A DNA stretch of 32,000 bases from Oceanicella sp. SM1341 (GCF_003448965.1 NZ_QRGC01000030.1:6991-38990), one strand, 5' to 3'. Counted from the stretch's first letter, positions 1,353 through 18,011 are shown. Made by a program: numbers and translations. Notes: generated by a model from the sequence alone, not told the origin.

Positions 1353-3344
1353 ATGTCCGGTACCAAGATCCTCTGGGGGCAGATCCTCACGGTCTTTCTG
1401 ATCGTTCTTCTCACCACCTGGGGCGCGACCGAATATGTCGCCTGGAGGCTCGGGTTTCAGGCGCAGCTCGGATCGCCCTGGTTCATCCTGCTGGGCTGGC
1501 CGGTCTATCTGCCGCCGTCCTTCTTCTGGTGGTGGTATGCCTACGATGCCTATGCCCCCGACATCTTCGTCCGCGGCGCCTTCATCGCCGCGTCGGGCGG
1601 TTTCCTCGCCATCGCTGTCGCGATCGGCATGTCGGTCTGGCGCGCACGCGAGGCCAAGAAGGCGGAAACCTATGGCTCGGCGCGTTGGGCAGAGGCGCAG
1701 GAGGTGAAGTCGGCCGGGCTGCTGCGCCCCGATGGCGTGGTGCTCGGGCAATATAATCGTGACTATCTTCGCCACGACGGGCCGGAGCATGTCCTGTGTT
1801 TCGCGCCGACCCGATCAGGCAAGGGCGTCGGTCTCGTCGTCCCGTCGCTGCTGACCTGGCCCGGATCGGCGATCGTCCACGACATCAAGGGTGAGAACTG
1901 GCAGCTCACCTCCGGGTTCAGATCGCGCCACGCCCGCGTGCTCCTGTTTGACCCAACCAACGCCAAATCCGCCGCCTACAATCCGCTGCTCGAAGTGCGG
2001 CGCGGCGAATGGGAAGTGCGCGATGTCCAGAACATCGCCGACATCCTGGTCGACCCCGAAGGCAGCCTCGAGAAGCGAAACCATTGGGAGAAGACCTCTC
2101 ATGCGCTCTTGGTCGGCGCCATCCTGCATGTGCTCTATGCCGAGACGGACAAGACGCTGGCCGGTGTCGCCGCCTTCCTCTCCGACCCAGGGCGGCCAAT
2201 CGAGTCGACGCTGGCCACCATGATGAAGACGGCGCATCTGGGGCAGGGGGGACCGCATCCCGTCATCGCCAGCGCGGCGCGCGAACTGCTCAACAAGTCC
2301 GACAACGAGCGCTCGGGCGTGCTCTCCACGGCCATGTCGTTCCTCGGCCTCTATCGCGATCCTGTGGTGGCCGAAGTTACCCGGCGCTGCGACTGGCGCA
2401 TCGGCGACATCGTGGGCGCAAAAGACCCCACCACGCTCTATCTCGTCGTTCCTCCCTCCGACATCAACCGCACCAAGCCGTTGATCCGCCTGATCCTCAA
2501 TCAGGTGGGCCGTCGACTAACAGAAGATCTGCAGGCGAAAGCGGGCCGCCACCGGCTGCTGCTGATGCTCGACGAGTTTCCGGCGCTCGGCCGGCTCGAC
2601 TTCTTCGAGAGCGCACTCGCCTTCATGGCCGGTTATGGGCTGAAAAGCTTCCTGATCGCGCAATCGCTGAACCAGATCGAGAAGGCCTACGGCGCCAACA
2701 ACTCGATCCTCGACAATTGCCATGTTCGCGTCAGCTTCGCGACCAACGACGAACGCACGGCCAAGCGCGTCTCCGATGCACTCGGCACGGCCACGCAGAT
2801 GAAGGCGATGAAGAACTATGCCGGACACAGGCTCAGCCCCTGGCTCGGGCACCTCATGGTGTCGCGCTCGGAGACCGCGCGGCCGCTGCTCACCCCCGGC
2901 GAAATCATGCAGCTTCCGCCGAGCGACGAGATCGTCATGGTCGCGGGCACACCACCGATCCGGGCGAAGAAGGCCCGCTACTACGAGGACGCGCGCTTCA
3001 GCGAACGCATCTTGCCGCCACCGGCACACAGCGCGCCGAATGAGGGCCGCCCGGATGATTGGACCACGCTTCCATTGCCGGCGCGCCCGGCAGTGGCTGA
3101 GACGAAGGGTGCAACAGTGTCTCAGGACGAGGATACGACCGACTCCGAGCGCCGCCGTCAACCCGAACTCAGCCGGGTGAAGCCGGTGGAAAAGAAGGTA
3201 CCGATCGACAACCCCTTCGAACTGGATGCTGATCGAGACGAGGAGCTCGACGATGCTGCAACGCGCAATCAGCGCATGACCGGGCTCATGCAAGGGGTGG
3301 CGCGGCAGGTCTCGCTTGATCCGAACGACGGCATGGAGCTGTGA
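1353..3344 (+). CDS. traG: Type IV coupling protein TraG (VirD4 family)
   Basis: 663 aa with N-terminal hydrophobic segments. Walker A is APTRSGKGVGLVVPS and Walker B is LLLMLDEFPALG. SD AGGAAAGG lies upstream of the ATG at 1353. Confidence 0.95.
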   Translation: MSGTKILWGQILTVFLIVLLTTWGATEYVAWRLGFQAQLGSPWFILLGWPVYLPPSFFWWWYAYDAYAPDIFVRGAFIAASGGFLAIAVAIGMSVWRAREAKKAETYGSARWAEAQEVKSAGLLRPDGVVLGQYNRDYLRHDGPEHVLCFAPTRSGKGVGLVVPSLLTWPGSAIVHDIKGENWQLTSGFRSRHARVLLFDPTNAKSAAYNPLLEVRRGEWEVRDVQNIADILVDPEGSLEKRNHWEKTSHALLVGAILHVLYAETDKTLAGVAAFLSDPGRPIESTLATMMKTAHLGQGGPHPVIASAARELLNKSDNERSGVLSTAMSFLGLYRDPVVAEVTRRCDWRIGDIVGAKDPTTLYLVVPPSDINRTKPLIRLILNQVGRRLTEDLQAKAGRHRLLLMLDEFPALGRLDFFESALAFMAGYGLKSFLIAQSLNQIEKAYGANNSILDNCHVRVSFATNDERTAKRVSDALGTATQMKAMKNYAGHRLSPWLGHLMVSRSETARPLLTPGEIMQLPPSDEIVMVAGTPPIRAKKARYYEDARFSERILPPPAHSAPNEGRPDDWTTLPLPARPAVAETKGATVSQDEDTTDSERRRQPELSRVKPVEKKVPIDNPFELDADRDEELDDAATRNQRMTGLMQGVARQVSLDPNDGMEL

Positions 3345-3999: not shown

Positions 4000-4989
4000 A
4001 TGGCAGCCTCACATCACAATTCGGAAGGGATCGCTCGAGGCGCGCGGATGCTGCGCACCGCGCTCGGTCCGGCCATCGCGACTTTCCTGGAAGACCCAGG
4101 AGTCGTCGAGGTGATGCTGAACCCGGACGGACGGCTCTGGATCGATCGCCTCTCCGAGGGACTGTCCGATACGGGCGAGCATCTGTCATCGGAGGATGGC
4201 GAACGGATCATCCGTCTTGTCGCCCACCATGTCGGTGCGGAGGTCCATACCGGAAGCCCCCGCGTCTCGGCGGAACTGCCCGGAACGGGAGAGCGGTTCG
4301 AGGGACTTCTGCCGCCAGTCGTGGCGGCGCCGGCCTTCGCCATCCGAAAGCCGGCCGTCGCGGTGTTCACGCTGCTGGACTACGTGGCCGCCGGAATCAT
4401 GAGCGCCGAACAGGCCAATGTTTTGCGCCGCGCCGTCTTCGACCGCGCCAACATCCTCGTCGCAGGCGGCACTTCCACCGGCAAGACGACGCTGACCAAT
4501 GCGCTGCTCGCCGAGGTGGCGAAGACCTCTGATCGCGTCGTCATCATCGAAGATACCCGCGAGTTGCAATGCGCCGCGCCCAACCTTGTCGCCATGCGGA
4601 CCAAGGACGGCGTCGCCTCGCTCTCCGATCTCGTCCGCTCCTCGCTGCGCCTGCGCCCCGACCGAATTCCGGTCGGCGAGGTGCGTGGCGCCGAGGCGCT
4701 GGACCTTCTCAAAGCCTGGGGCACCGGCCATCCCGGCGGCATAGGGACCATCCATGCCGGCAGCGCCATCGGCGCGCTGCGCCGCATGGAACAGCTCATT
4801 CAGGAAGCCGTCGTCATCGTGCCCAGAGCGCTGATCGCCGAGACAATTGACCTCGTGGCGGTGCTCTCCGGCCGCGGTGCCGCGCGCCGGCTCTCCGAAC
4901 TCGCCCGCGTCGAGGGCCTCGGCACGGACGGCGATTACCGCATCGTGCCCGCCACCACTCATCTCCAGCCCGAAGAAGGAACCTCCTAA
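4000..4989 (+). CDS. trbB: Conjugal transfer ATPase TrbB (VirB11 family)
   Basis: 329 aa with Walker [12 protein letters not shown], plus the EDTRELQ and [12 protein letters not shown] motifs typical of VirB11/TrbB secretion ATPases. Confidence 0.95.
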
Positions 4990-5345
4990 TGATGCCCGTT
5001 GTTCAGCACCCGCGCCTGTCGCGTCTTCACCAACTGCCCGATCGTCTCACGATGGCGGCATCCGTCGCCATGCTGAGCGTGTGCATGGCCGCACCCGCCC
5101 ATGCCTCCGGCTCGTCCATGCCTTGGGAAGCGCCGTTGCAGAGCATCCTCGAATCCATCGAGGGGCCGGTCGCCAAGATCATCGCCGTCATCATCATTAT
5201 CACCACGGGCCTGACTCTCGCCTTCGGCGACACCTCCGGCGGCTTCCGGCGGCTGATCCAGATCGTCTTCGGCCTGTCGATCGCCTTCGCGGCCAGTTCG
5301 TTCTTCCTTTCCTTCTTCTCCTTCAGCGGCGGGGCGCTGGTCTGA
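4989..5345 (+). CDS. trbC: Pilin precursor TrbC (VirB2 family)
   Basis: 118 aa. The ATG overlaps the trbB stop (TAATG). A long signal-like leader ends in AHA, followed by two hydrophobic helices, and the gene has the conserved position after trbB. Confidence 0.85.
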   Translation: MMPVVQHPRLSRLHQLPDRLTMAASVAMLSVCMAAPAHASGSSMPWEAPLQSILESIEGPVAKIIAVIIIITTGLTLAFGDTSGGFRRLIQIVFGLSIAFAASSFFLSFFSFSGGALV

Positions 5346-5626
5346 TGCCGGGCGGTGTAGATCAGGGTGGAGACGTTCCCGGCTATTCGGTCCCGCTGCA
5401 CCGGGCGCTCAGCGAGCCGATCCTGCTTGGCGGCGCACCGCGTGCCATCGCCATCCTGAACGGCACACTCGCCGGAGCGGTGGGTCTCGGACTGCGCCTC
5501 TGGCTCGTCGGCATCGCCATCTGGGCGATCGGGCATTTCGCGGCGGTGTGGGCGGCCAAGCGCGATCCGCTCTTCGTCGAGGTCGGCCGCCGCCATCTGC
5601 GCATTCCCGCGCATCTCACGGTCTGA
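5345..5626 (+). CDS. trbD: TrbD (VirB3 family)
   Basis: 93 aa. The ATG shares one nt with the trbC stop (TGATG). The sequence PLHRALSEPILLGGAPR followed by a hydrophobic hairpin is typical of TrbD. The longer track ORF from 4847 is an upstream extension that overlaps trbB and trbC. Confidence 0.85.
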   Translation: MPGGVDQGGDVPGYSVPLHRALSEPILLGGAPRAIAILNGTLAGAVGLGLRLWLVGIAIWAIGHFAAVWAAKRDPLFVEVGRRHLRIPAHLTV

Positions 5627-5640
5627 GGGGAAGCGCCGCC

Positions 5641-8127
5641 ATGATGAACCTCGCCGAATACCGCAATAGAAACGCCCGTCTCGCCGATTACCTCCCCTGG
5701 GTGGCGCTGGCCGGTTCCGGCATCGTGCTCAACAAGGATGGCAGCTTCCAGCGCACGGCGCGGTTTCGCGGTCCCGATCTGGATTCCGCGGTGCCGGCGG
5801 AGCTGGTCGCGGTCGCGGGCCGTCTCAACAACGCTTTCCGCCGGCTCGGTTCGGGCTGGGCGATCTTCGTCGAGGCGCAGCGCAATCCGGCCGCGGTCTA
5901 CCCCGTCAGCACGTTTCCCGATGCAGCGTCCGCATTGGTCGATGCCGAGCGCAAAGCGGATTTCGAACAGGCGGGGTCACATTTCGAATCTTCGTATTTC
6001 CTGACCTTCACCTGGCTGCCGCCGGCCGAGGACGCCGCCCGCGCCGAGACCTGGCTTTACGAAGGCCGCGAGAAGACCGGCATCGATGCGCACGAAGCGC
6101 TGAACGGCTTCGCCGATCGCACCGACCGGCTGCTCAACCTGATCGAAGCCTTCATGCCGGACTGCCGCTGGCTCGATGACGGCGAGACCCTGACCTACCT
6201 GCATGGCTGCATTTCCACGCAGCGCCATCGCGTCCGTGTCCCCGAGACGCCCATGTATCTTGACGCGCTCTTGGCCGATCAGCCGCTCACGGGCGGGCTG
6301 GAACCGCGTCTGGGATCGGCGCATCTGCGCGTTCTCACAATCACCGGCTTTCCGACTGCGACGACGCCGGGCCTGCTGGACGAGTTGAACCGGCTGGCCT
6401 TTCCCTATCGCTGGTCCACCCGGGCGATCCTGCTTGACAAGAGCGATGCGGTGAAGCTGCTGACGAAGATCCGCCGCCAGTGGTTTGCCAAGCGCAAGTC
6501 CATCGCCGCGATCCTCAAGGAAGTGATGACCAACGAGCAATCCGTGCTCGTGGACACAGATGCCTCCAACAAGGCGGCCGATGCTGATCTCGCGCTGCAG
6601 GAGCTTGGCGCAGACTATGCCGGCATCGCCTATGTCACCGCGACGGTCACGGTGTCCGACGCCGATCCACGCATTGCCGACGAGAAGCTGCGCCTCGTCG
6701 AGAAGGTGATCCAGGGCCGCGACTTCACCGCGATGGCCGAGACCATCAATGCGGTGGACGCTTGGCTCGGCAGTCTACCCGGTCATGTCTATGCCAATGT
6801 CCGGCAACCGCCGATCAGCACTTTGAATCTCGCCCACATGATCCCCCTGAGCGCTGTGTGGGCGGGGCCGGAACGGGGAGGTCCGAGCAGTGATGGGCAT
6901 TTCACAGCGCCCCCGCTGCTCTTCGGCAAGACCGAAGGCTCTACCCCGTTCCGGTTTTCCCTTCATGTCAGCGATGTCGGGCATACGCTCGTCGTCGGCC
7001 CGACCGGCGCGGGCAAGTCCGTGCTGCTGGCGCTTATGGCGCTGCAGTTCCGCCGATATGCCGGTGCCCAGGTCTTTGCCTTCGACTTCGGAGGGTCGAT
7101 CCGTGCCGCCGCGCTCGCCATGGGCGGCGACTGGCACGATCTTGGTGGCGGGCTCAGTGAGGGATCAGAATCTTCCGTCAGCCTGCAGCCGCTCACCCGC
7201 GTCGATGACAGCGCCGAGCGCGCCTGGGCTGCCGACTGGATCGGCGCGATCCTGAAGCGCGAAGGTGTCGCGGTCACGCCCGAGGTGAAGGAGCATCTCT
7301 GGACGGCGCTGACCTCGCTGGCCTCGGCGCCGGTCGAGGAGCGCACCATCACCGGGCTGTCAGTCCTCCTTCAATCCAACGACTTGAAGCAGGCCTTGCG
7401 TCCCTATTGCTTCGGTGGCGCCTGGGGGCGGTTGCTGGATGCCGAAGACGAACATCTGGGCCATTCCACGGTCCAGGCTTTCGAGACGGAAGGGCTGATC
7501 GGGACCGAGGCGGCCCCCGCCGTGCTCGCCTATCTGTTCCACCGGATCGAAGGTCGCCTCGACGGTTCGCCGACGCTGATCATCGTCGATGAAGGCTGGC
7601 TCGCGCTCGATGACGAGGGGTTCGCCGACCAGCTCCGCGAGTGGCTGAAGACCCTTCGCAAGAAGAACGCCTCCGTCATCTTCGCCACCCAGTCGCTGAG
7701 CGACATCGATGGTAGTCCGATCGCGCCGGCGATCATCGAGAGCTGCCCGACCCGGATACTGCTCCCGAACGAACGTGCGATCGAGCCGCAGATCACCGCC
7801 ATCTATCGCCGCTTCGGCCTCAATGACCGCCAGATCGAGATCCTCGCACGGGCCATGCCCAAGCGCGACTACTACTGCCAGTCGCGGCGTGGAAATCGCC
7901 TGTTCGAGCTGGGCCTGTCGGAGGTGGCGCTGTGCCTTTGTGCCGCGTCGTCGCGCCAGCATCAGCAGCGCATCGCCGAGATCCACGCCCGAACCGGCAC
8001 CGACGGCTTCCTCCACGATTGGCTCGCGGAAAACAGCCTCGCCTGGGCGGCCGACATGATCGCCGACCTCACCAACCTCGCGTCCCGGTCTCCCATGCCC
8101 ACCACCAACGAGGAAGTTCCGACATGA
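5641..8127 (+). CDS. trbE: Conjugal transfer ATPase TrbE (VirB4 family)
   Basis: 828 aa counted from ATG 5641 (MMNLAEYRNRNARLADYLPW). Walker A is VVGPTGAGKS and the Walker B-like segment is LIIVDEGW. The position after trbD is conserved. Confidence 0.95.
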   Translation: MMNLAEYRNRNARLADYLPWVALAGSGIVLNKDGSFQRTARFRGPDLDSAVPAELVAVAGRLNNAFRRLGSGWAIFVEAQRNPAAVYPVSTFPDAASALVDAERKADFEQAGSHFESSYFLTFTWLPPAEDAARAETWLYEGREKTGIDAHEALNGFADRTDRLLNLIEAFMPDCRWLDDGETLTYLHGCISTQRHRVRVPETPMYLDALLADQPLTGGLEPRLGSAHLRVLTITGFPTATTPGLLDELNRLAFPYRWSTRAILLDKSDAVKLLTKIRRQWFAKRKSIAAILKEVMTNEQSVLVDTDASNKAADADLALQELGADYAGIAYVTATVTVSDADPRIADEKLRLVEKVIQGRDFTAMAETINAVDAWLGSLPGHVYANVRQPPISTLNLAHMIPLSAVWAGPERGGPSSDGHFTAPPLLFGKTEGSTPFRFSLHVSDVGHTLVVGPTGAGKSVLLALMALQFRRYAGAQVFAFDFGGSIRAAALAMGGDWHDLGGGLSEGSESSVSLQPLTRVDDSAERAWAADWIGAILKREGVAVTPEVKEHLWTALTSLASAPVEERTITGLSVLLQSNDLKQALRPYCFGGAWGRLLDAEDEHLGHSTVQAFETEGLIGTEAAPAVLAYLFHRIEGRLDGSPTLIIVDEGWLALDDEGFADQLREWLKTLRKKNASVIFATQSLSDIDGSPIAPAIIESCPTRILLPNERAIEPQITAIYRRFGLNDRQIEILARAMPKRDYYCQSRRGNRLFELGLSEVALCLCAASSRQHQQRIAEIHARTGTDGFLHDWLAENSLAWAADMIADLTNLASRSPMPTTNEEVPT

Positions 8128-8885
8128 TCCGCACCCGATCCAGCGCCCGGCGCTTCGCCCTGGCGCTTCTCAGCGCGCCCGTTCTTCTGACCCCGATACT
8201 GGCGACGCCCGCCTATGCGATCATCGTGTTCGATCCCTCGAACTACGCACAAAACGTCCTGACGGCGGCGCGCGCGCTCGAACAGATCAACAATCAGATC
8301 ACCTCGCTTCAGAACCAGGCGCAGATGCTGATCAACCAGGCCCGCAACCTCGCGAGCCTTCCGTTTTCCTCGCTGCAACAGCTTCAGCAATCCGTGCAGC
8401 GCACCCAGCAACTTCTCGCCCAAGCGCAGAACATCGCCTACAACGTGCAGCGGATCGATCAGGCGTTTCAGACCAAATACGCCAATGTCTCGATGTCCGC
8501 ATCGGACGCGCAGCTCGTCGCCGATGCCAGAACCCGCTGGCAGAACACCGTGGGCGGCCTGCAGGACGCCATGCGCGTACAGGCAACCGTCGTCGGCAAT
8601 ATCGAGACCAACCGCCAGCAGATGTCGGCGCTGGTGGGCGCGAGCCAGTCAGCGACGGGCGCTCTCCAGGCGACGCAGGCTGGCAACCAGCTTCTCGCCC
8701 TGCAGGCCCAGCAGCTCTCCGACCTCACAGCCGTCATCTCCGCGAATGGTCGCGCGCAGGCCCTGCACGATGCCGAGCAGGCCGCCGCGGCTGAACAGGG
8801 CCGCGAACAGCGTCGCCGCTTCCTGACCCCCGGTTCGGGCTACCAGCCCGGCAACGCCCGGATGTTCCCGGGCAGCGACAGTTGA
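8124..8885 (+). CDS. trbJ: TrbJ (VirB5-like)
   Basis: There is an ATGA overlap with the trbE stop. A signal peptide (LLTPILATPAYA) is followed by a Q/L-rich coiled-coil-like sequence typical of TrbJ. Confidence 0.85.
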   Translation: MIRTRSSARRFALALLSAPVLLTPILATPAYAIIVFDPSNYAQNVLTAARALEQINNQITSLQNQAQMLINQARNLASLPFSSLQQLQQSVQRTQQLLAQAQNIAYNVQRIDQAFQTKYANVSMSASDAQLVADARTRWQNTVGGLQDAMRVQATVVGNIETNRQQMSALVGASQSATGALQATQAGNQLLALQAQQLSDLTAVISANGRAQALHDAEQAAAAEQGREQRRRFLTPGSGYQPGNARMFPGSDS

Positions 8886-8895
8886 GGGCAGGGCG

Positions 8896-9165
8896 ATGGA
8901 CGGCAAGACCCTCGCACGCATCGGCGCCATCGTCTTCGTCGCGGTCGCGATCACCGCCACCGTGATCCAGATGACCCGCAAAGATGCGGTGCCTCCAGCG
9001 CCCGCCGCGTCCTCCGCGCCGACGGCGGACAGGCAAGATCCGCTGAGCGCGGAGCTAACCCGATGCAGCCAGGCCGGAGAAGCCGCCACACATGATCCAG
9101 CCTGCCTTAATGCCTGGGCCGAGAACCGTCGGCGTTTCCTCGGTCACAGCAGCGAAGGGCGCTGA
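8896..9165 (+). CDS. trbK: Putative entry-exclusion protein TrbK-alt
   Basis: 89 aa. The N-terminal TM segment is LARIGAIVFVAVAITATVI and the C-terminal motif is CLNAWAENRRRFLG. It sits between trbJ and trbL. Confidence 0.6.
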   Translation: MDGKTLARIGAIVFVAVAITATVIQMTRKDAVPPAPAASSAPTADRQDPLSAELTRCSQAGEAATHDPACLNAWAENRRRFLGHSSEGR

Positions 9166-9229
9166 ACGTGAAAGTAGAGATGAAGCGCTCCATCGCCTTC
9201 CGGAGACGAGTTTCTCTATCCCTCTTCCC

Positions 9230-9263
9230 GAACCGGACATGCAGGTTTCCAAGCATCCGGCTC
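9230..9263 (-). ncRNA. Group II intron domain V
   Basis: The minus strand reads GAGCCGGATGCTTGGAAACCTGCATGTCCGGTTC. This is a 34-nt hairpin with the AGC triad, a G-U wobble, a 2-nt bulge and a GAAA-type apical loop. Confidence 0.9.
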
Positions 9264-9299
9264 TCCATGCACGGGCGGTCGTCAGCCCGTGGGTGTGCC

Positions 9300-10826
9300 T
9301 CAAACGCGTCTGAGGCGCGCGAACGCAGTCCAGAAGTCAAGCAGGGTTTCCCGATGCCTGTTTTCCCATCTTGCGTTCCATCCGTTCGGTTTCTCGATTC
9401 GCTGTTCCGGGTAACGCATGGTTCCTCCGTCAGTGAAGAACCGCAGGCGTCTGGACCCTTCGGTCCATTGCCGTCGTTTTCCGGGGGCGCTGAGATGATA
9501 GCGGCGCCGCAGGGTCGGCCAACCCGCATTGCCGTGCTTCATCTTCAACCAGCGCCCGACGCGCTGCCATATCCAGAAGTCGAGATGGCTGAACCGACCG
9601 TGCGCGCCTGTGGCGTAACGGTAATAGTTCCTCCACCCCGTGATGACCGGATTGAGCCTGTCGATGACGTAGGCAAGGTCGCGTCCCGTGGGGATGCCCC
9701 TCACCATGACCTTGATCTTGTGGCGCAGGTCGTTCAGCTTTCCCTTCGGGATGAAGAGATTGCCGACCCATCGGCCTGTCCGACAGGCTCTGGTCTGCGC
9801 CACCCGGTAGCCGAGGAAGTCGAAGCCTTCCCTGACATCGGTGATCCGGGTCTTTTCCATCGACAGTTCCATGCGAAGCTCCGTCTTCAGGAACTCCGCC
9901 AGCGCGAGCTTTTCCGCTTCCGCCTGCTCCCGCGTGCCATCCACGAGAACGACGAAGTCGTCCGCGTATCGCACCATGTAGAGCACCGGCCGACCCCTCT
10001 TGTGGTCTCTGACCCTTCGGGCCGCCGGATTGATGCTCGGTTCGCGGGGGCGGCCTGTCCACCATCCATACCGCTCGTCGATGGCTGTCAGGTAGATGTT
10101 CGACAGCATCGGCGAGATGATCCCGCCTTGCGGCGAGCCGGTGACGGGGTGGCGTTCGGTCCCTTCGACCATCACACCGGCTTTCAGGAACGAGAGGATC
10201 AGCGCCAGCACCTTGCGGTCGCCGATGCGTTTCCGGACCCGCTCCATCATGACGTGATGATCGATGGCGTCGAAGCAGCCCTTGATGTCTCCCTCTATGA
10301 CATAGCGATAGACCGAGGGTCCGCGCTTTGTCGGGTGAAGGAACCTCTGGATTCTTGCCAGAGCATCGTGGGTGCTTCGACCGCGCCGGAACCCGTAGGA
10401 GGTCGGATAGAAGTCCGCCTCGAAGATAGGCTCCAGGACCAGCTTCAAAGCCATCTGCACCAGACGATCGACCAACGTTGGAATGCCGAGTGGCCGGAAC
10501 TGCCCCGGTTTGCCGGGCTTTGGGATAAGCCGCTGCCTGACCGGTTGGGGACGATAGGTTCCGTTGCGAAGCACCTCGCGTATCTCATCGAGGAACCCTG
10601 CTGCGCCACCGGGACGCTGTTCGACCATGCGCCGCGTCACCCCGTCGGTGCCGGGTGTCTGGCTGCCCCGATTACCGGACAGCCTTCGCCACGCCTCCTC
10701 AAGGAATCGGCGGTCGCATACGAGATTGAACAGACCAGCGAAGACCTTGTCGGGGTCTTCGTTGCTCCACCGATACAGCTTGCGCTGCATGTCGAGGACG
10801 AACAAGATATTCATCTCGTTGGACAT
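9300..10826 (-). CDS. Group II intron reverse transcriptase/maturase (no En domain)
   Basis: 508 aa from the ATG at 10826, preceded by AGGAGG with a 7 nt spacer. RT motifs present: IPKPGKPGQFRPLGIPTLVDRLVQ, DIKGCFD, GSPQGGIISPMLSNIYL, RYADDFVVL. The maturase X motif is ITGWRNYYRYA. The C-terminal ~90 aa contain no Cys and no HNH signature. Confidence 0.93.
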   Translation of the reverse strand: MSNEMNILFVLDMQRKLYRWSNEDPDKVFAGLFNLVCDRRFLEEAWRRLSGNRGSQTPGTDGVTRRMVEQRPGGAAGFLDEIREVLRNGTYRPQPVRQRLIPKPGKPGQFRPLGIPTLVDRLVQMALKLVLEPIFEADFYPTSYGFRRGRSTHDALARIQRFLHPTKRGPSVYRYVIEGDIKGCFDAIDHHVMMERVRKRIGDRKVLALILSFLKAGVMVEGTERHPVTGSPQGGIISPMLSNIYLTAIDERYGWWTGRPREPSINPAARRVRDHKRGRPVLYMVRYADDFVVLVDGTREQAEAEKLALAEFLKTELRMELSMEKTRITDVREGFDFLGYRVAQTRACRTGRWVGNLFIPKGKLNDLRHKIKVMVRGIPTGRDLAYVIDRLNPVITGWRNYYRYATGAHGRFSHLDFWIWQRVGRWLKMKHGNAGWPTLRRRYHLSAPGKRRQWTEGSRRLRFFTDGGTMRYPEQRIEKPNGWNARWENRHRETLLDFWTAFARLRRV

Positions 10827-11464
10827 GGGTCCACCTCCTGCCTGCTCGCTGTATCCACTGCCTTCCTTCGCCATGTGGACGGCTTTCCCGTCCCCGGACT
10901 ACTACGAAGGCTCCGCCCCTCACCATCGCGGTCGCTGGTCGCTTCAGCCATCCGGGGTCCGACTGTTCCGGAAGCGACGGCAAGGTTCTTAGGTTCCGTA
11001 ACTGATCTCTCGCCTGCTTTAGGCGCCGACTTTACCCCGTGTGGATTCCGACCCCGATACCGCGCAAGCTCATATCGAGGCTGGCGCACGGCACGCCGCA
11101 CACCCCCAGCCCATGTGTCCATAGCACGGGCCAACGCTCCACAAATCTGCGGTTCGCACCACAGACCGACCCGCCGACTTCCGAGTTGGCGTGTCTCCGC
11201 GCGTAACGAGGCGTCCGCCATCGGTTCGGTTTCCCTCGCCATGGCAGGCTCGCTGGCCGGACCACGTACGGGATCGGAAGTCCCCGCCCGTCCGGCTTTG
11301 ATGGGTTCTGCTGATTTATGGCTCCCCGGAAGCACCCGGTTTGCCTCACCCATCGGCTTGTCACCGCATGTTGCGCCACACGGTGCGCGGGGCCTTTCAT
11401 CCCGCGAGATCAGAAACGACAATAAAATCAAAGCACTCCTTTCTTTGATCAGGACCTAACGCAC

Positions 11465-12796
11465 ATGGGCAACACCGGCGTCATCGATCACTTCCTCGAT
11501 GTCTTTACCCGCTACATCGACGGCGGCTTCGGTCTGCTTGGCGGCGAGGTCGGTTTCATCGCCACCACGCTGATCGTCATCGACGTGACGCTGGCCGCGC
11601 TCTTCTGGTCCTGGGGCGCCGACGACGACATCATGGCGCGGCTCGTCAAGAAGACGCTTTTCGTCGGTGTTTTCGCCTACATCATCTCCAACTGGAACAA
11701 TCTGGCCCGGATCGTTTTCGAAAGCTTCGCGGGGCTCGGCCTGAAGGCGTCCGGCACGGGCTTTACCACGGCCCAGCTTCTCCAGCCCGGCAAGGTCGCC
11801 CAGACCGGCCTTGATGCGGGGAGGCCGCTGCTCGATTCCATCTCGAACCTGATGGGCTATTGGTCCTTCTTCGAGAATTTCATCCAGATCGCCTGCATGT
11901 TCTTCGCCTGGGCGCTGGTGCTCTTGGCCTTCTTCATCCTCGCCATCCAGCTCTTCGTCACGCTGATCGAGTTCAAGCTGACGACGCTCGCCGGCTTCGT
12001 GCTGATCCCCTTCGGTCTCTTCGGCAAGTCCGCCTTCATGGCCGAGCGGGTGCTCGGTAACGTCATCTCCTCGGGCATCAAGGTTCTGGTGCTCGCCGTT
12101 ATCATCGGTATCGGCTCGACACTCTTTTCCGAATTCGCCGCAGGGTTTGGCGGCGCGACACCGACCATCGACGATGCGATGGCGATCGTGCTGGCAGCCC
12201 TTTCACTGCTTGGCCTCGGCATTTTCGGCCCCGGTATCGCAACGGGGCTCGTCTCCGGCGGTCCCCAGCTTGGCGCCGGATCGGCGATCGGCAGCGGTCT
12301 TGCTGCCGGCGGCATGGTCGTCGCGGGCGGCGCGGCGCTCGGGGCTGCGGCCTCCGGTGGCGCATCTCTCCTTGGCGGAGCGGCGGCAGCCGCCCGTGGT
12401 GGGGCCGCGCTCGCGGGCGGGGCATCCACCGCCTACAGCCTCGGCGCCGCCGGACAGACCGGCGCGTCCGCCGTTGCATCTGGCCTCGGCAATGTCGCCA
12501 GCACCGGCGCATCGCAGGCTGGATCTGCCTTGGTCAGCCCGCTCAGACGCGCCGCGGGATCGATGCGCGGCAGCTTCGAGGCCGGTGGGCGTGCCGTCTC
12601 CGGCGAAGCCGCTGCCGATGAACGTGCATCGGCCGCAGCCGCAGCCTCATCTGCGCCCGACAGCCCGCCTGCCTGGGCAAAGCGCATGAAGCGCTCCCAA
12701 GCCATGTCCCACGGGATGCAGGTCGCAGCCCATTCCGTCCGCAGCGGCGACAGCCACGGCAGCGGCTCTTCCGTCAACACCTCCGAAAGCGACTGA
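11465..12796 (+). CDS. trbL: TrbL (VirB6 family)
   Basis: 443 aa. The N-terminus GVIDHFLDVFTRYIDGGFGLLGGEVGFIATTLIVIDVTLA is typical of TrbL. It has multiple TM segments and a Gly/Ala-rich C-terminal tail. Confidence 0.93.
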   Translation: MGNTGVIDHFLDVFTRYIDGGFGLLGGEVGFIATTLIVIDVTLAALFWSWGADDDIMARLVKKTLFVGVFAYIISNWNNLARIVFESFAGLGLKASGTGFTTAQLLQPGKVAQTGLDAGRPLLDSISNLMGYWSFFENFIQIACMFFAWALVLLAFFILAIQLFVTLIEFKLTTLAGFVLIPFGLFGKSAFMAERVLGNVISSGIKVLVLAVIIGIGSTLFSEFAAGFGGATPTIDDAMAIVLAALSLLGLGIFGPGIATGLVSGGPQLGAGSAIGSGLAAGGMVVAGGAALGAAASGGASLLGGAAAAARGGAALAGGASTAYSLGAAGQTGASAVASGLGNVASTGASQAGSALVSPLRRAAGSMRGSFEAGGRAVSGEAAADERASAAAAASSAPDSPPAWAKRMKRSQAMSHGMQVAAHSVRSGDSHGSGSSVNTSESD

Positions 12797-12798
12797 CC

Positions 12799-13479
12799 AT
12801 GTTCAAGCGATCCGCCACCCACTACGGCAAATCCCCTCAGCCTGAGACACCCTACCAGCGGGCGGCGCAGGTCTGGGACGAACGCATCGGCTCCGCCCGC
12901 GTCCAGGCGAGGAACTGGCGCCTCATGGCTTTCGGCTGCCTCATTCTGTCCGGTGGACTTTCGGGCGCACTGGTCTGGCAATCGCTGAGTGGCTCAATCG
13001 TGCCGTGGGTGGTGCAGGTGGACAAGCTCGGCCAGGCCCAGGCCGTCGCGCCCGCGACCGCCGACTACACACCGAACGACGCCCAGGTCGCCTGGTATCT
13101 CGCCCGCTTCATCGAGGAGGTCCGCTCGATCCCGGCCGATCCGATCATCGTCCGGCAGAACTGGCTTCGGGCCTATGACTTCACCACGACCGCGGGCGCG
13201 CAGGCGCTCAACAACTATGCCCGCGCCAACGATCCCTTCGCCAAGGTGGGCAAGCAGCAAATCGCGGTGGGGGTGTCGTCGGTCATTCGCGCCTCACCGT
13301 CGAGCTTCCGCATCGCCTGGGTCGAGCGCCGCTATCAGGACGGTTCGCTCGCCAGCACCGAGCGCTGGTCGGCGATCCTCACCGTCGCGGTCCAAGCACC
13401 GCGCGATGCCGACACGCTGCGAAAGAACCCGCTCGGAATCTACGTCACCGCAATCAACTGGTCGAAGGAGCTTGGATGA
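12799..13479 (+). CDS. trbF: TrbF (VirB8-like)
   Basis: 226 aa starting 2 nt after the trbL stop. It has a single N-terminal TM (WRLMAFGCLILSGGLSGALVW) and the conserved position. Confidence 0.9.
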   Translation: MFKRSATHYGKSPQPETPYQRAAQVWDERIGSARVQARNWRLMAFGCLILSGGLSGALVWQSLSGSIVPWVVQVDKLGQAQAVAPATADYTPNDAQVAWYLARFIEEVRSIPADPIIVRQNWLRAYDFTTTAGAQALNNYARANDPFAKVGKQQIAVGVSSVIRASPSSFRIAWVERRYQDGSLASTERWSAILTVAVQAPRDADTLRKNPLGIYVTAINWSKELG

Positions 13480-14546
13480 TGACGCCGACCTTCCGCAAAT
13501 CCGCCACCGGAACAGCGGGACGCCCGACTTTCCGTATTCACGCCATTCCGGCTTTCCGCAAATCCGGCTTGCCGGTATTCCTGCTTTGCGCAACCGCGCT
13601 TGCCGGTTGTGCGGCTCATATGCCGCCGCCCGAGATTTCCTATGACCATGCCGCGCCGGCTGTATTCAAAGCCGATCCGCCGGCGCCCGTGCGGGTCGTC
13701 ACCCTGCCTAAGCCCCTGCCTCTTCCGGGCCAGTTGAAGCCGGTCGGCAAGGACGGCAAGGCAACGCCCCAGGCGAAAGACCCCCAGCAGCGGGTCAACA
13801 ACGCCAATGCCGCCGCACGCATCCAGCCCGTGCGAGACGGGTTCATAAATTCCATGCAGGTCTATCCCTTCGTCGAAGGCGCGCTCTATCAGGTCTATGC
13901 GTCACCGGGGCAGATCACCGACATCGGGCTCCAACCCGGCGAACAGCTTGTCGGCTCCGGTCCCGTGGCCGCCGGGGATACGGTGCGCTGGATCATCGGC
14001 GATACCGAGAGCGGCGCGGGCGCGTCGAAACAGGTGCATATCCTCGTCAAGCCGACCCGGCCGGAACTGATGACCAATCTCGTTATCAACACCAATCTGC
14101 GCACCTATCACATGGAACTGCGCTCGACCGAGAAGACCTATATGGCCTCGGTCTCCTGGCAATATCCGCAGGACCAGCTCATTGCGCTGCGCCGCCAGAA
14201 TCGTGAGGCGGAAACCTCACGACCAATTTCCGCCGGCGTCGATCTGTCGAAGGTCAATTTCCGCTATGCGATCACCGGCGACCGCGCCCCGTGGCGGCCG
14301 CTGCGCGCTTTCGACGATGGGCGGCAGGTGTTCATCGAGTTTCCGCGCGGCATTGCCCAGGGCGAAATGCCGCCGCTCTTCGTCGCCGGTCCCGAGGGCA
14401 AGACCTCCGATCTCGTGAACTACCGCGTGCGCGGCAATTACATGATCGTCGACCGGCTCTTCGCGGCCGCCGAGCTGCGCTTCGGTTCGGGCAAGCATCA
14501 GAAGCGCATCCGTATCTCCCGGACGGATGGGAGGCGCGCATCGTGA
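13476..14546 (+). CDS. trbG: TrbG (VirB9 family) with extended repeat-containing N-terminus
   Basis: There is an ATGA overlap with trbF. A lipobox-like LLCATALAGC is followed by a VirB9-like body (YPFVEGALYQVYASPGQITDI, TYHMELRST). About 30 extra N-terminal residues carry three P(T/A)FR(K/I) repeats. Confidence 0.88.
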   Translation: MMTPTFRKSATGTAGRPTFRIHAIPAFRKSGLPVFLLCATALAGCAAHMPPPEISYDHAAPAVFKADPPAPVRVVTLPKPLPLPGQLKPVGKDGKATPQAKDPQQRVNNANAAARIQPVRDGFINSMQVYPFVEGALYQVYASPGQITDIGLQPGEQLVGSGPVAAGDTVRWIIGDTESGAGASKQVHILVKPTRPELMTNLVINTNLRTYHMELRSTEKTYMASVSWQYPQDQLIALRRQNREAETSRPISAGVDLSKVNFRYAITGDRAPWRPLRAFDDGRQVFIEFPRGIAQGEMPPLFVAGPEGKTSDLVNYRVRGNYMIVDRLFAAAELRFGSGKHQKRIRISRTDGRRAS

Positions 14547-15772
14547 GCGAGATCGATCCCGAAAAGGAGGAAAGGGACGAATCCGCGGAGGATAGTGGTC
14601 GGCCGCTTACCGGCGAGCCGCTTACGTCCATGCGGCTTCGACCGGCGCCGCCGCGGGTCACCCGGCTGTCGCGCAAGGTGCTCGCGGGACTCGGCCTCGC
14701 GGCCAGTCTCGGCATCGGCGGTGCGCTGATCTATGCGCTCCAGAACGCGCATCCCGGTAGCCAGGGCAAGGAACTCTATTCCACCGACAATCGCGCCACA
14801 GCGGACGGTCTGGCAGGGTTGCCGAAGAATTATGGCGATGTCCCCAAGCTCGGTCCACCGCTGCCGGGCGATCTCGGCCGTCCGATCCTCAGCGCGCGGA
14901 ATGGCGGACAGTCGGTCCCGGCACCGGCCGTCGCTACGCCTGGGCAGGGCGTCAGCGAGGAAGAACGCCGGCTCCTTCAGGAGATCGAGGCCGCCCGGAC
15001 GGCCAAGCTCTTCGCCCAGACCGATGTGAGGCCCGGCAGCGCCGCGACCGCCACAACCATCGCGCCGGGAAGCATAACGCCGGACCTTACAAGTCTGGGT
15101 CTCGCACCGCAGCCCGCGACGCCTACAGCCCAGGATCGGCAACAGGACTTCCTCGACAAGGCGGCCGACAAGCGCACCGTCTCGCCCGATCGTGTCGCGG
15201 CACCTGCATCGGCGAATATCCTTCAGGCTGGCGCGGTCATCCCGGCGGCCCTCATCACCGGCATCCGCTCCGATCTGCCCGGTCAGATCACCGCGCAGGT
15301 GACAGAGAATGTCTATGACAGCCCCACGGGGCAAATCCTGCTCGTGCCGCAGGGTACGCGCGTCATCGGCCAGTACGACAACGGCGTCGGCTTCGGTCAA
15401 CGCCGCGTGCTTCTGATGTGGACCCGATTGATCTTTCCGAATGGCCGGTCAATCGTGCTGGAACGCCATCCCGGTGCGGACAGCCAGGGCTTTGCCGGTC
15501 TCGAAGACGGTGTCGACTATCATTGGGGGGAGCTCTTCAAAGGCGCGATCCTCTCGACAATCCTGAGCATCGGCGCGGAAGCGGGCTCTTCCAGCGACGA
15601 CAGCACGATCGTCCGGGCTCTCCGTCAGGGCGCCTCCGACAGCATCAGCCAGACCGGCCGTCAGATCGTGCAGCGCCAACTGAATATCGCTCCGACGTTG
15701 ACCATCCGGCCAGGCTTCCCTGTGCGGGTGCTGGTGACGCGCGATCTCGTGCTCGAACCCTATGGAGGCTGA
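14543..15772 (+). CDS. trbI: TrbI (VirB10 family)
   Basis: The GTG start overlaps the trbG stop (GTGA). The sequence has MRLRPAPPRVTRLSRKVLAGLG followed by a TM, a Pro-rich linker and a conserved C-terminal domain (GFGQRRVLLMWTRLIFPNGRSI). The track ORF start at 14291 is an upstream extension inside trbG. Confidence 0.9.
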   Translation: MSEIDPEKEERDESAEDSGRPLTGEPLTSMRLRPAPPRVTRLSRKVLAGLGLAASLGIGGALIYALQNAHPGSQGKELYSTDNRATADGLAGLPKNYGDVPKLGPPLPGDLGRPILSARNGGQSVPAPAVATPGQGVSEEERRLLQEIEAARTAKLFAQTDVRPGSAATATTIAPGSITPDLTSLGLAPQPATPTAQDRQQDFLDKAADKRTVSPDRVAAPASANILQAGAVIPAALITGIRSDLPGQITAQVTENVYDSPTGQILLVPQGTRVIGQYDNGVGFGQRRVLLMWTRLIFPNGRSIVLERHPGADSQGFAGLEDGVDYHWGELFKGAILSTILSIGAEAGSSSDDSTIVRALRQGASDSISQTGRQIVQRQLNIAPTLTIRPGFPVRVLVTRDLVLEPYGG

Positions 15773-15774
15773 CC

Positions 15775-16014
15775 ATGACCAAACTGAAACTTGGGCCACT
15801 CGCCGACGACAAGCCGGTCAAGGTCACACTGGAGCTGCCCGCCAGCCTGCACCGAGACTTGACCGCCTATGCCACAATCCTTGCCCGAGAGGTGGGGCAG
15901 CCCGCCGCCGATCCTACTCGCCTGATCGTCCCCATGCTGGAGCGGTTCATCGCGACGGATCGCGGCTTTGCGAAGGCCCGGCGGACATTGCCGAGAGAAT
16001 CTCCGCCGGGCTAG
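15775..16014 (+). CDS. DUF2274 family protein (conserved last gene of Trb-type transfer modules)
   Basis: 79 aa, MTKLKLGPLADDKPVKVTLELPASLHRDLTAYA..., starting 2 nt after the trbI stop. Both the position and the sequence are characteristic of the family. Confidence 0.8.
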   Translation: MTKLKLGPLADDKPVKVTLELPASLHRDLTAYATILAREVGQPAADPTRLIVPMLERFIATDRGFAKARRTLPRESPPG

Positions 16015-16927
16015 GGTCGCTTGCGCTATGGGATTTTGCCATCTGGCGCGCCATGCTGATCAGACGCCGACTGGCAGGATTGTCATTGTGCGGCGACCAG
16101 ACTGCGCTGAAGGGCAGCACCTCACCCTGGATCGGCCGATAGACGACGCCTGGAAACTGCGCGGCCGTCGTCGCTTCGCTGGTCAAGGTCAAGCCACGAC
16201 CGATCGCGACCAAGGTCATGAGGTTGTCCCTTCCAACACTTTGCGCCTCAATCTCTGGGTGCCGACCAAGCTCGGCGAGCCGCTGCATCAGAAAATCGTG
16301 AATCTCCGGCCCTGGGGCGGAATCGCTAATGATGAAACGCTCTCCTGAGACATCCGTCCACTCGATCTCGTCGAGTTGCGCCAGCGTATGTTGGAGCGGG
16401 AGAACCAGAAAGACGCGCTCGCTCCAGAGGTGCATGGTATCGCAGCCTCTCCAAGCCGCTGTCCCAGTTATGAACGCGACGTCGAGCCGAAGCTGACGCA
16501 CCGCGGCAACATGTTCCGCCGGATTGCCGTTGATCAAATCAATCGAGACACCAGCATGGGCCCGATCATAGGAATTGAGCAACTCGTGAAGAAAGCCGGA
16601 CGCCAGCGATGAAAATATTCCGATCTTGATTTGCCCTTCTTCCGATCTGCCGATGCCTGCAACCTCGTTGGCGCCTTGATGGACGCTTTTCAGAGCCGTT
16701 CGGGCTCGGACCAAAAAGCGCTGTCCAGCCACCGTCAGGAGCACACCAGTGGTCCTGCGTTGGAATAGCGATGCGCCTAGCATGTCTTCGAGATCGCGAA
16801 GACGGCGGCTGACAGCGGACTCCTGCATGCCAAGCGCCTTCGCAGCCTTGCGGAAACTGCCTTGTTCCGCTGCAGCTACGAAATATCGGAGATGCCTAAG
16901 TTCTATGCGGAGATCGCATCTGGCCAT
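15947..16927 (-). CDS. LysR family transcriptional regulator
   Basis: The N-terminal wHTH is LRHLRYFVAAAEQGSFRKAAKALGMQESAVSRRLRDLE, followed by a LysR substrate-binding domain. The last ~22 codons run antisense into the DUF2274 gene. Confidence 0.88.
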   Translation of the reverse strand: MARCDLRIELRHLRYFVAAAEQGSFRKAAKALGMQESAVSRRLRDLEDMLGASLFQRRTTGVLLTVAGQRFLVRARTALKSVHQGANEVAGIGRSEEGQIKIGIFSSLASGFLHELLNSYDRAHAGVSIDLINGNPAEHVAAVRQLRLDVAFITGTAAWRGCDTMHLWSERVFLVLPLQHTLAQLDEIEWTDVSGERFIISDSAPGPEIHDFLMQRLAELGRHPEIEAQSVGRDNLMTLVAIGRGLTLTSEATTAAQFPGVVYRPIQGEVLPFSAVWSPHNDNPASRRLISMARQMAKSHSASDPSPAEILSAMSAGPSQSRDPSR

Positions 16928-17228
16928 GGCGCAGCTCTAAACAAGGCCACTTCGGCAACGCTGAAAACAACATCTGGCCGCTGTGCGAGACCCGCATGAT
17001 CGCAATTGGGTATGAGTGGAATTGGGGCGAACGGTACCGCGGATTCTCCTTCAGCCTTTGCCTTCATTTGAGAGATCCCCAAGTCATTTTGTCGAATAAG
17101 GTGTGCCGTATTTCGCCTGCACACGTAACAGCGGCACCCGAAATGTAACCGAGGACCGGATCGCTGTACGTCTAGCCACACACGGTGCGCCTGTAATTTC
17201 TGCGATGGAGAAGGTGGGTTTCATGCTG

Positions 17229-18011
17229 TCATGCCGGAATGGAAATGCCTGACAGTTTCCGACATTTTTCGATCAGCTTGTCCTGCAGATCGCAATCGCT
17301 TGCCTCGGGATTGGCAGAACGTTCACGCATGTGATGAAAATAGCGCCCCGTCACTCGGGCCGCGGCATCATCGCTCGTTGCAAGCCAGGCCTGCGTTCGA
17401 TGCGCCTCGTCCAGATCATCTGGGGCGCTGGGGCCACCCATGCGGGTTGGAACCCAGCCCGGCTCCAGCGCATTCGACAGCACCGATGTCCAGCGACGCG
17501 CTATTGCGAAAGCGAGCAATACGTCATGCAGTTTGCTCTCAGAATAGGCTTCGGAGCCATCCCATACGCGTTTGCGCCATTCCAGGTCGTCAAGGGCCGC
17601 GCCTGCCCAGTGATGCATGCCGGAGCTGAGATAGACAAGCCGATCGGGCCTTTCGATCAGGGCCGTCAGTGCATAGGGCGCCAAGACATTTACCGCAAAC
17701 ACATGCGGCAGACCCTCCTCTGTTTCGAGCCGCCGCCGCTCCCGATATCCGACCCCGGCATTGTGAATAATCGCGTTGAAGCGTCCAAGCCTGTTAACCT
17801 GTTCGGCAACTTGGCGGGCACCCGCGACACTCGAAAGATCGCCTACGACCACAGCCTCCGCCATTGGCAATGCTTGAAGGGCATCCTTGGCTCGCGCTTC
17901 GTTTCGTGCATGAAGGACGACCTGATGGCCTTGCTCGACCAGCAACTGGCCTGCCATAAGCCCAAGTCCTGTCGACGATCCGGTAATAAACACTCTGCGC
18001 ATCTGCGACAT
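17229..18011 (-). CDS. SDR family NAD(P)-dependent oxidoreductase
   Basis: Rossmann motif VFITGSSTGLG, NAG motif IHNAGV and catalytic YSESK. SD GGGGA lies upstream of the start. Confidence 0.9.
   Translation of the reverse strand: MSQMRRVFITGSSTGLGLMAGQLLVEQGHQVVLHARNEARAKDALQALPMAEAVVVGDLSSVAGARQVAEQVNRLGRFNAIIHNAGVGYRERRRLETEEGLPHVFAVNVLAPYALTALIERPDRLVYLSSGMHHWAGAALDDLEWRKRVWDGSEAYSESKLHDVLLAFAIARRWTSVLSNALEPGWVPTRMGGPSAPDDLDEAHRTQAWLATSDDAAARVTGRYFHHMRERSANPEASDCDLQDKLIEKCRKLSGISIPA

Follow-up and report, generated by a model that had tools for sequence, protein, structure and literature searches.

The usual explanation for the tolerance of group II introns in bacteria is that they either remove themselves by splicing or insert outside genes. 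Group IIC-attC introns, found in integron cassettes, target attC stem-loops and lie against the direction in which the surrounding gene array is transcribed; they are not known to carry an antisense reading frame. The intron of Oceanicella sp. SM1341 described here shares this orientation opposite to the surrounding transcription, but the attC-directed introns belong to another intron class, with an attC stem-loop as target. Its anatomy is that of the endonuclease-less bacterial group II introns, e.g. RmInt1 of Sinorhizobium meliloti, which (PMC4181065) likewise combine a 5′ GUGCG, domains V/VI and a 3′ AC with a reverse transcriptase (RT) and maturase ORF in domain IV and with EBS/IBS pairing to the 5′ exon (candidate pairing in the present case), and which sit in mobile elements outside housekeeping genes. 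Unlike RmInt1-type introns, the clade of the present intron lies antisense, 0–13 nt before start codons in conjugative or phage operons. A group II intron among conjugation genes is also known from the lactococcal relaxase gene, where Ll.LtrB affects their expression (PMC6003770, PMC7293003); however, Ll.LtrB is sense-oriented and spliced out, whereas the present intron, being antisense to the trb genes, is not spliceable from the operon mRNA. A backward intron in an essential operon can neither splice out nor sit outside genes. Full-text literature searches turned up no account of such introns with antisense frames, whether whole-length and stop-free or otherwise.

The intron and its antisense frame

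The window, i.e. the whole stretch of 32,000 nt that was analysed (GCF_003448965.1 NZ_QRGC01000030.1:6991-38990), holds a tightly packed P-type conjugation set in the order trbB-C-E-J-K, intron, L-F-G. The intron is 2297 nt long, rather than the 2291 nt given in a preliminary description, and lies exactly at the trbK/trbL junction, after the stop codon of the one and before the ATG of the other. The features are as follows:

8896–9165, plus strand: trbK, TrbK-alt entry exclusion protein (PF20084, 2e-36; TIGR04360), ending in TGA 9163–9165
9154–9159, plus strand: GAAGGG, Shine-Dalgarno-like, 8 nt before GTG 9168
9168–11464, minus strand: group II intron, with 5′ GUGCG the complement of 11460–11464 and 3′ ...UUUCAC the complement of 9168–9173
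9168–9265, minus strand: domain V/VI core of the intron (Rfam RF00029, 54.9 bits with the gathering cut-off at 40, E 2.8e-9)
9168–11459, plus strand: antisense open frame of 763 codons, GTG 9168 to TAA, stop-free stop-to-stop from 9111
9300–10874, minus strand: intron-encoded reverse transcriptase/maturase, 524 aa (RVT_1 2.7e-31, GIIM 2.7e-15; TIGR04416 339 bits against a cut-off of 300 bits)
10875–11464, minus strand: non-coding ribozyme domains I–III and the start of IV (from alignment with relatives and 5′-exon pairing)
11116–11124 and 11191–11195, minus strand: candidate EBS1 loop and candidate EBS2, assigned by eye from 5′-exon pairing
11451–11454, plus strand: AGGA, a putative signal within the intron 5′ end, 10 nt before the trbL ATG
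11465–12796, plus strand: trbL (PF04610; PRK13875 profile positions 1–442, matched from residue 1)
12799–13479 and 13476–14546, downstream of trbL: trbF and trbG (VirB8 and CagX matches)

The intron boundaries (GUGCG, 11464–11460; ...CAC, 9170–9168) agree with those of relatives and with the intron-less junction, as excision in silico yields TGA-AC-ATG, cf. TAG-GC-ATG in the intron-less operon of pCHQ1, which has the same 2-nt stop-start junction. A profile search did not find an endonuclease domain in the intron-encoded protein, and the Rfam class models for domains I–IV gave no match on the intron. Judged by eye, the candidate EBS loops pair over 5 of 6 bases (IBS1) and 5 bases (IBS2), and relatives covary at the same candidate loops, likewise assigned by eye. 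The host genome carries one copy of the intron; relatives are multi-copy.

A stop scan bore out the earlier account of a frame open from 9111 to the TAA at 11457–11459 with GTG 9168 as its first start: in the plus frame with position mod 3 = 0, stops occur at 9108 and 11457 with none between, and the remaining two plus frames carry 27 and 28 stops within the intron. An in-frame ATG follows at 9180. The register is codon-for-codon opposite the RT gene, from which TTA, CTA and TCA are absent by codon counts, and beyond the RT the frame crosses 722 nt of non-coding ribozyme. The suggested stop/start coupling geometry is real, with a 2-nt gap at the entry (TGA 9163–9165, AC, GTG 9168; TGA-AC-GTG, 9163–9170) and a 5-nt gap at the exit (TAA 11457–11459, CGCAC, trbL ATG 11465; TAA-CGCAC-ATG, 11457–11467), and it recurs in the diverged trb operon that carries the related intron L100.

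The GAAGGG reported near the GTG is present, 8 nt before it; it is probably the former trbL ribosome-binding site, given that pCHQ1 has GAGG ~10 nt before its trbL ATG. The AGGA near the exit has a counterpart in L100 (AAGGA, at the same distance from the trbL start). The proposal that the GTG was the pre-insertion trbL start, with GTG-AAA in frame with ATG-GGC of trbL, is refuted. The intron-less pCHQ1 already uses the ATG: it reads TAG-GC-ATG-GGG-AAC-ACC, and its TrbL begins with an identical MGNTGVIDHF. In the present operon, the first position of the TrbL profile falls on the ATG. The GTGAAA is part of the intron 3′ end and has its counterpart in the 3′ ends of related introns in an alignment. 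A promoter and terminator scan of 8800–11800 gave nothing on the plus strand and a single weak promoter-like site on the minus strand.

Openness in this copy and among relatives

The length of the frame alone says little, because 1,054 open frames that reach 700 codons and look non-coding occur in the GC-rich host genome (70.8% GC); moreover, 70% of host genes of 400–600 aa are without TTA, CTA and TCA. These figures are what would be expected of a chance shadow ORF, i.e. a frame that is open opposite a GC-rich gene in which the three codons are rare, extends through the ribozyme by luck and is inherited by close relatives. The exact codon alignment with the RT, the low-complexity product without homologues and the many relatives, some of them antisense, that carry stops point the same way. 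However, the intron is only 61% GC with an RT GC3 of 0.76, yet CTA accounts for 0/41 and TCA for 0/10 of the respective RT codons, the A-ending share in the other four-fold families being 3–26%. The probability of openness was 0.022 for the RT part (family-pooled synonymous usage), and 0.030 for 560 nt of the 5′ ribozyme and 0.62 for the 3′ part (both from dinucleotide shuffles), giving a product of ~4e-4 for the whole frame in this copy. In so GC-rich a host, the argument against chance presupposes that such nulls treat a 61% GC element fairly.

The comparative evidence against chance is stronger than these single-copy nulls. In a family-wide test, for which the data are independent, end-to-end openness was observed in 11/114 relatives, against 0.26 expected (≤0.8 with empirical base rates). 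This 15–40-fold excess over the prediction from composition is restricted to frame 0, and the fully open relatives are spread over at least five lineages of the tree; many of the other relatives carry stops in the frame. Where the RT antisense is open, the ribozyme is also open in 12 sequences for frame 0, compared with 0 and 1 for frames 1 and 2. Two separate four-member clades hold the frame open (71–86% nucleotide identity, dS 0.5–0.9), its persistence spans dS 0.5–1.3, and relatedness-preserving tests gave P ~1e-4 for the ribozyme part and again ~1e-4 for the RT part. Within the clade of the present copy (this intron, L100, L002 and L020; 76–80% nucleotide identity, dS 0.5–0.7), stops occur in 19 columns of the 5′ ribozyme when it is read in frames 1 and 2, and 16 of these columns vary, whereas frame 0 has no such column outside the last ~35 nt (column permutation, P = 1.5e-4). 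In the same clade, the 130 distinct Leu/Ser codon states include no TTA, CTA or TCA (P = 2.7e-4). The preliminary description had allowed that the frame "could equally be chance"; with these relatives, and two more at dS above 1, remaining open, that explanation is disfavoured and we regard it as unlikely.

The stops that end the frame vary in relatives, lying 8–34 nt from the exit, and some relatives have none; what delimits the frame is therefore the end of the intron rather than a conserved stop codon. In five open actinobacterial introns (2166, 2166, 2175, 2175 and 2172 nt), sub-segments as well as total lengths are multiples of 3, and the frame tiles the intron exactly from the first to the last antisense base. 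A general rule that open introns have multiple-of-3 lengths was rejected, since it holds for these five and fails for the alphaproteobacterial ones. The 35 non-open introns with mapped ends are distributed 9/12/14 over the three length classes mod 3.

Product, insertion contexts and a possible ribosome passage

The 763-aa product is low-complexity, had no match at E ≤1e-5 among 5.8 billion proteins, and Pfam and NCBIfam profiles found nothing on it; the initial impression of junk has stood up, as neither constraint at the amino-acid level nor a homologue or domain was found. Gene callers evidently never call this antisense frame, and a product search is therefore useless for gathering further copies. 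Substitutions in the ribozyme part are without codon periodicity (variable columns 0.38/0.35/0.35 and 0.38/0.38/0.38), and compositional codon periodicity was likewise not detected there. Consequently, only openness ("no stop") is kept, and the conserved property appears to be the absence of stops, i.e. a passage rather than a protein gene.

A genuine antisense protein-coding gene of the intron, as in retroviral antisense genes, would explain the conservation of openness across lineages, the openness of sense-inserted copies and the starts near the entry (GTG 9168, ATG 9180, and an ATG at antisense nt 12–16 in the clade relatives L100, L002 and L020 and in L025). The even distribution of variable columns over codon positions, the aperiodic composition and the empty family and homologue searches argue against it, and the position of the stop is not conserved, several introns having no internal stop, so that the flanking sequence determines the ends of the ORF. 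The conserved entry ATG, moreover, sits in domain VI, and the ribozyme explains its conservation. We consider such a gene very improbable.

All alphaproteobacterial open copies with known context are antisense to an adjacent mobile-element gene; for the present intron, L100, L002 and L025, the insertion falls between closely packed genes. L100 is inserted at the same site, the start of trbL, although the TrbL of its trb operon shows only 53% identity; its entry reads TAA-GT-ATG (2-nt gap) and its frame stops 14 nt before the trbL GTG. Comparison of the two introns gives a dS of 0.64 for the RT (80% identical) and 0.88 for trbL, and EBS2, as assigned by eye, covaries with each exon; repeated homing to the same trbL site would be at least as likely as vertical inheritance. 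L002 is flanked by a Peptidase_S26 gene and a DUF736 gene, L025 lies 12 nt ahead of a phage capsid gene, and L020 lies 11 nt ahead of a MobA relaxase gene. L021 is present as three copies within an SLT gene, where the antisense frame exits in frame with the remainder of the gene. Overall, the gene on the 5′-exon side is antisense in 7/9 open vs 24/74 non-open introns (Fisher p = 0.012, with kinship ignored and a crude GC3 gene filter).

Beside the observed anatomy, non-random persistence of openness, lack of protein-level constraint and operon contexts, we propose that selection keeps the frame free of stops as a passage through the intron, neither a protein gene nor a chance shadow ORF, by which ribosomes bridge trbK and trbL. 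We put this reading forward tentatively, with confidence somewhat short of even. The operon transcript would pass through the antisense strand of the intron; ribosomes ending trbK at TGA 9163 would restart 2 nt on at GTG 9168, via the former trbL ribosome-binding site, translate 763 codons whose product is irrelevant, stop at TAA 11457 and restart 5 nt on at the trbL ATG. With translation unbroken, the long foreign RNA would not offer Rho termination or decay an untranslated target, and trbL would stay coupled to upstream translation. Translation of the frame, restarts at both ends (judged by geometry) and protection of downstream expression are what this mechanism would entail.

The evidence from contexts is mixed. 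The anti-polarity and re-initiation mechanism fits the alphaproteobacterial copies with their placement in tight operons. Against the bridge, the open actinobacterial copies (L049, L056, L062, L065 and L088) are sense insertions in tnpB, AlbA_2, MerR (3′ end) and DDE transposase genes, where no host operon reads the intron antisense strand, and several antisense relatives beside DUF736 genes are not open. The latter, multi-copy introns on Shinella and Bradyrhizobium plasmids, lie 10–11 nt before the DUF736 genes with 8–11 stops in the frame, and L022, L023 and L026 carry stops as well; an intron can therefore reside antisense without the passage. L020, in turn, has no clear co-directional gene upstream. 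Inspected post hoc, these DUF736-side copies have no abutting upstream gene.

The sense-inserted introns, equally open over their whole length, suggest that openness may instead be kept by a frame-aware constraint of the intron lineage itself, independent of host operons, with the trbK/trbL geometry incidental. This could take the form of selection that makes every insertion less harmful, whether antisense or in frame, or of another role for ribosomes on antisense transcripts. The exact tiling in multiples of 3 and the recurrence of openness in at least five lineages agree with such a constraint, but no mechanism is known by which a sense-inserted intron would have its antisense strand translated, the open introns of alphaproteobacteria have lengths that are not divisible by 3, and their consistent placement antisense to mobile-element genes, mostly in tight operons, is unexpected if context is irrelevant. 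We consider the lineage constraint somewhat less probable than the ribosome bridge. The broader form of the ribosome-passage proposal is slightly more tentative than its application to trbK and trbL: some group II intron lineages may have evolved a whole-element stop-free antisense frame in which ribosome passage matters and the product is meaningless, allowing unspliceable residence in tight conjugative or prophage operons without polar effects.

Relation to described systems

In operons, termination-reinitiation at close stop and start codons couples translation of neighbouring genes, and Rho-dependent termination causes polarity. The 2-nt (trbK-frame) and 5-nt (frame-trbL) gaps resemble such couples; unlike in the usual coupled operons, the intervening cistron would be a 763-codon filler from the antisense strand of a parasite, with coupling proposed from geometry. 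If true, the intron would keep its cost to the host low by a new route for mobile elements, distinct from splicing and from hiding in intergenic DNA, and the frame would be a natural example of selection for translatability, not for protein. Even if the operon bridge fails, the excess of whole-intron open frames in sense and antisense lineages needs explaining.

Over the RT, the frame is like the shadow ORFs of GC-rich bacteria (PMC8850804), lying codon-for-codon antisense and needing only the absence of TTA, CTA and TCA. Unlike them, it crosses the non-coding ribozyme, extends no further than the intron itself and has been retained in diverged relatives far above the expectation from composition. 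A further parallel is asp of HIV-1 (PMC8781085, PMC10846101), a retroelement antisense frame argued from stop depletion and lineage-specific conservation to encode a protein. The intron frame differs in covering the entire element, where asp covers a segment, and in its lack of protein-level constraint; if the passage reading is true, it is a caution for antisense-gene discovery, as stop-codon depletion need not mean a functional protein.

The intron within the conjugation operon

The plus strand of the window encodes a P-type conjugation operon whose gene junctions overlap or nearly touch, and between trbK and trbL a group II intron of 2297 nt is inserted on the minus strand (9168-11464).

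Features of the operon and the intron (window positions)
1353-3344, plus strand, TraG
4000-4989, plus strand, TrbB
4989-5345, plus strand, TrbC
5548-8127, plus strand, TrbE
8124-8885, plus strand, TrbJ
8896-9165, plus strand, TrbK-alt
9168-9265, minus strand, intron domain V/VI (Rfam RF00029, 54.9 bits)
9300-10874, minus strand, RT/maturase ORF, 524 aa
11465-12796, plus strand, TrbL
12799-13479, plus strand, TrbF/VirB8
13476-14546, plus strand, TrbG

A trbI gene is expected downstream of trbG; no coding-like ORF passed the GC3 filter at window positions 14546-17331. The GC content of the transfer region is ~60-65%, compared with 70.8% for the host genome (GC3 0.94 in its long genes), which indicates a recently acquired element.

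The intron boundaries were set from the point where the Rfam match stops, the alignment to the ends of related introns and the intron-less trbK-trbL junction of the Sphingobium plasmid pCHQ1. This junction reads TAG-GC-ATG-GGG-AAC-ACC, corresponding to TGA-AC-[intron]-ATG-GGC-AAC-ACC in the window, and positions 11460-11464 complement the GUGCG at the intron 5' end. The host genome holds a single copy.

The stop-free plus-strand frame noted in the preliminary description was confirmed: the register with position mod 3 = 0 (frame 0) contains no stop between 9108 and 11457, and the other two plus frames (frames 1 and 2) contain 27 and 28 stops inside the intron. The resulting ORF runs from GTG 9168 to TAA 11457-11459 (763 codons), in codon-for-codon register with the RT gene, so that its stops would read as sense TTA, CTA or TCA, codons that the RT gene lacks entirely. 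Outside the RT gene it spans a further 590 nt in domains I-III and 132 nt at the 3' end. Its start and stop are arranged as first described, the one exception being that GTG-AAA forms the 3' terminus of the intron itself. Since, in addition, the match of TrbL to its family profile begins at profile position 1 on the ATG, the proposal that trbL started at this GTG before the insertion is refuted.

Openness of the frame in this copy and in relatives

In this host, frame length alone is worthless as evidence: TTA, CTA and TCA are absent from 70% of its 400-600 aa genes, and the genome contains 1,054 non-coding-like open frames of ≥700 codons. The intron itself has a GC content of 61% (RT GC3 0.76), and its RT codons include CTA in 0/41 and TCA in 0/10 cases, compared with 3-26% A-ending codons in the other four-fold families. 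The probability of an open RT part was 0.022 when synonymous codon usage was pooled from 139 related RT genes. In dinucleotide shuffles, a 560-nt stretch of the 5' ribozyme stayed open with probability 0.030 and the 3' part with probability 0.62; the three values multiply to ~4e-4.

Related loci (160) were gathered from species-representative genomes and metagenomes; the RT was intact in 139 and the full core present in 114. An intron was scored as open when no stop occurred between a point 110 nt past the RT stop and one 560 nt ahead of the RT start. Fully open introns numbered 11/114, against 0.26 expected, or ≤0.8 using empirical base rates from the non-open majority and the control frames; outside this set the counts agreed with the null. 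The excess is frame-specific, as openness antisense to the RT was accompanied by an open ribozyme part in 12 cases in frame 0, none in frame 1 and one in frame 2. Among the other relatives, a gene with an IstB-like P-loop (GGTGTGKT) replaces the 5' part of the truncated intron L024 (1-1450) and looks like an IS21-family element. On Agrobacterium leguminum plasmid p2 (L230:2197-6358), two annotated group II intron RT genes lie 940 nt apart on the same strand, in introns that may be tandem or nested.

Open introns occupy at least five places on the RT tree, two of them being clades of four introns, all open. Clade 1 comprises the window intron, L100, L002 and L020 (76-80% nucleotide identity, dS 0.5-0.7), and clade 6 the actinobacterial L049, L062, L056 and L065 (71-86% identity). 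In the 5' ribozyme of clade 1, frames 1 and 2 contain 19 stop columns, 16 of them variable, and frame 0 contains none apart from four private stops within the final ~35 nt; clade 6 shows 17 versus 0, and its frame-shifting indels of 1-2 nt, at differing columns, reach an equal total in three lineages. Permutation of alignment columns with relatedness kept gave probabilities of 1.5e-4 (clade 1) and 2e-4 (clade 6) that all four members are open. Likewise, the lack of TTA, CTA and TCA among distinct Leu/Ser codon states had P = 2.7e-4 and 2.6e-4, respectively. Two introns at dS >1 from the window copy are open as well, L021 apart from two stops in its first 13 nt and L025 apart from one stop 34 nt from the exit. 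From these comparisons we conclude that the openness is maintained, not merely inherited. The preliminary description had considered that the frame could equally be chance; given the nulls, the family excess and the relatedness-preserving clade tests, such an origin seems unlikely.

The absence of stops is the sole conserved property of the frame. No codon-position bias of variable columns was found in the ribozyme part, where these are spread evenly over the three positions, nor any compositional periodicity. The predicted product contains ~10% each of Ala, Arg and Pro, and no domain or homologue of it was found. Across introns the stops near the exit lie at differing positions or are missing, and the frame therefore ends with the intron, not at a conserved stop codon. 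In combination, these observations argue against an antisense protein gene and in favour of passage across the intron.

Genomic contexts and a possible translational bridge

The open alphaproteobacterial copies all lie antisense to adjoining genes of mobile elements. L100 is inserted at the trbL start, at the same site as the window intron, in a trb operon encoding a TrbL with only 53% identity; a small upstream ORF ends with a TAA 2 nt before the ATG of the frame, and the frame stops 14 nt upstream of the trbL GTG. This copy (metagenome contig Ga0207828_100009, L100:880-3240) has atypical ends, 5' CUGCG rather than GUGCG and 3' ...UCCUGC without AY, and an intact, 80% identical RT; it may be an immobilised resident. 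L002 is flanked by a Peptidase_S26 gene that ends 24 nt ahead of it and a DUF736 gene that begins 11 nt beyond it, L020 lies 11 nt ahead of a MobA/MobL relaxase gene, and L025 has a 187-aa ORF on one side and an HK97-type capsid gene on the other. Three copies are present in the L021 genome, each within an SLT lytic transglycosylase gene and each with the frame exiting in frame with the remainder of that gene.

Candidate EBS2 loops of L002, L020 and L025 (intron ~265-285) all contain ATGG or ATGA, pairing with the reverse complement of the region around the neighbour's start codon (CCAT, at a distance of 12-15 nt from the insertion point); by this pairing, the three introns seem directed to the surroundings of start codons on the antisense strand.

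These alphaproteobacterial contexts fit the bridge proposed in the preliminary description, in which ribosomes would cross the intron along the antisense frame, keep the operon RNA translated and be delivered to the next start codon. No promoter-like or terminator-like site was predicted on the plus strand between 8800 and 11800 of the window, which agrees with the same idea.

Such a bridge does not extend to every open relative. In the actinobacterial lineages the open introns are inserted in the sense orientation (tnpB, AlbA_2, a MerR 3' end and DDE transposase genes); their lengths of 2166 or 2175 nt (2172 nt in L088) are all multiples of 3, and the frame tiles them exactly. Actinobacterial open-frame introns are multi-copy (L188, L189, L193, L194, L204 and other contig-end loci of genomes G401-G403) and home in sense into a TACAAG(T)-containing site of tnpB (OrfB_IS605) and AlbA_2.

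Multi-copy relatives on Shinella and Bradyrhizobium plasmids lie antisense 10-11 nt before DUF736 genes and carry 8-11 stops; the frame also has stops in L022, L023 and L026, the last located before a terminator-like hairpin. On the 5'-exon side of L022 (800-905) and L023 (95-180), a conserved hairpin-rich spacer of ~75-85 nt separates the intron 5' end from the start of the next antisense gene. Post hoc, in a small sample, these non-open copies were found to have no abutting upstream co-directional gene; if this pattern holds, there would be no upstream translation needing carriage across them. A literature search found no earlier description of stop-free antisense frames in group II introns. 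For the window locus, a translational bridge is the best available reading of the frame's proposed function, put forward tentatively and with somewhat less than even confidence.
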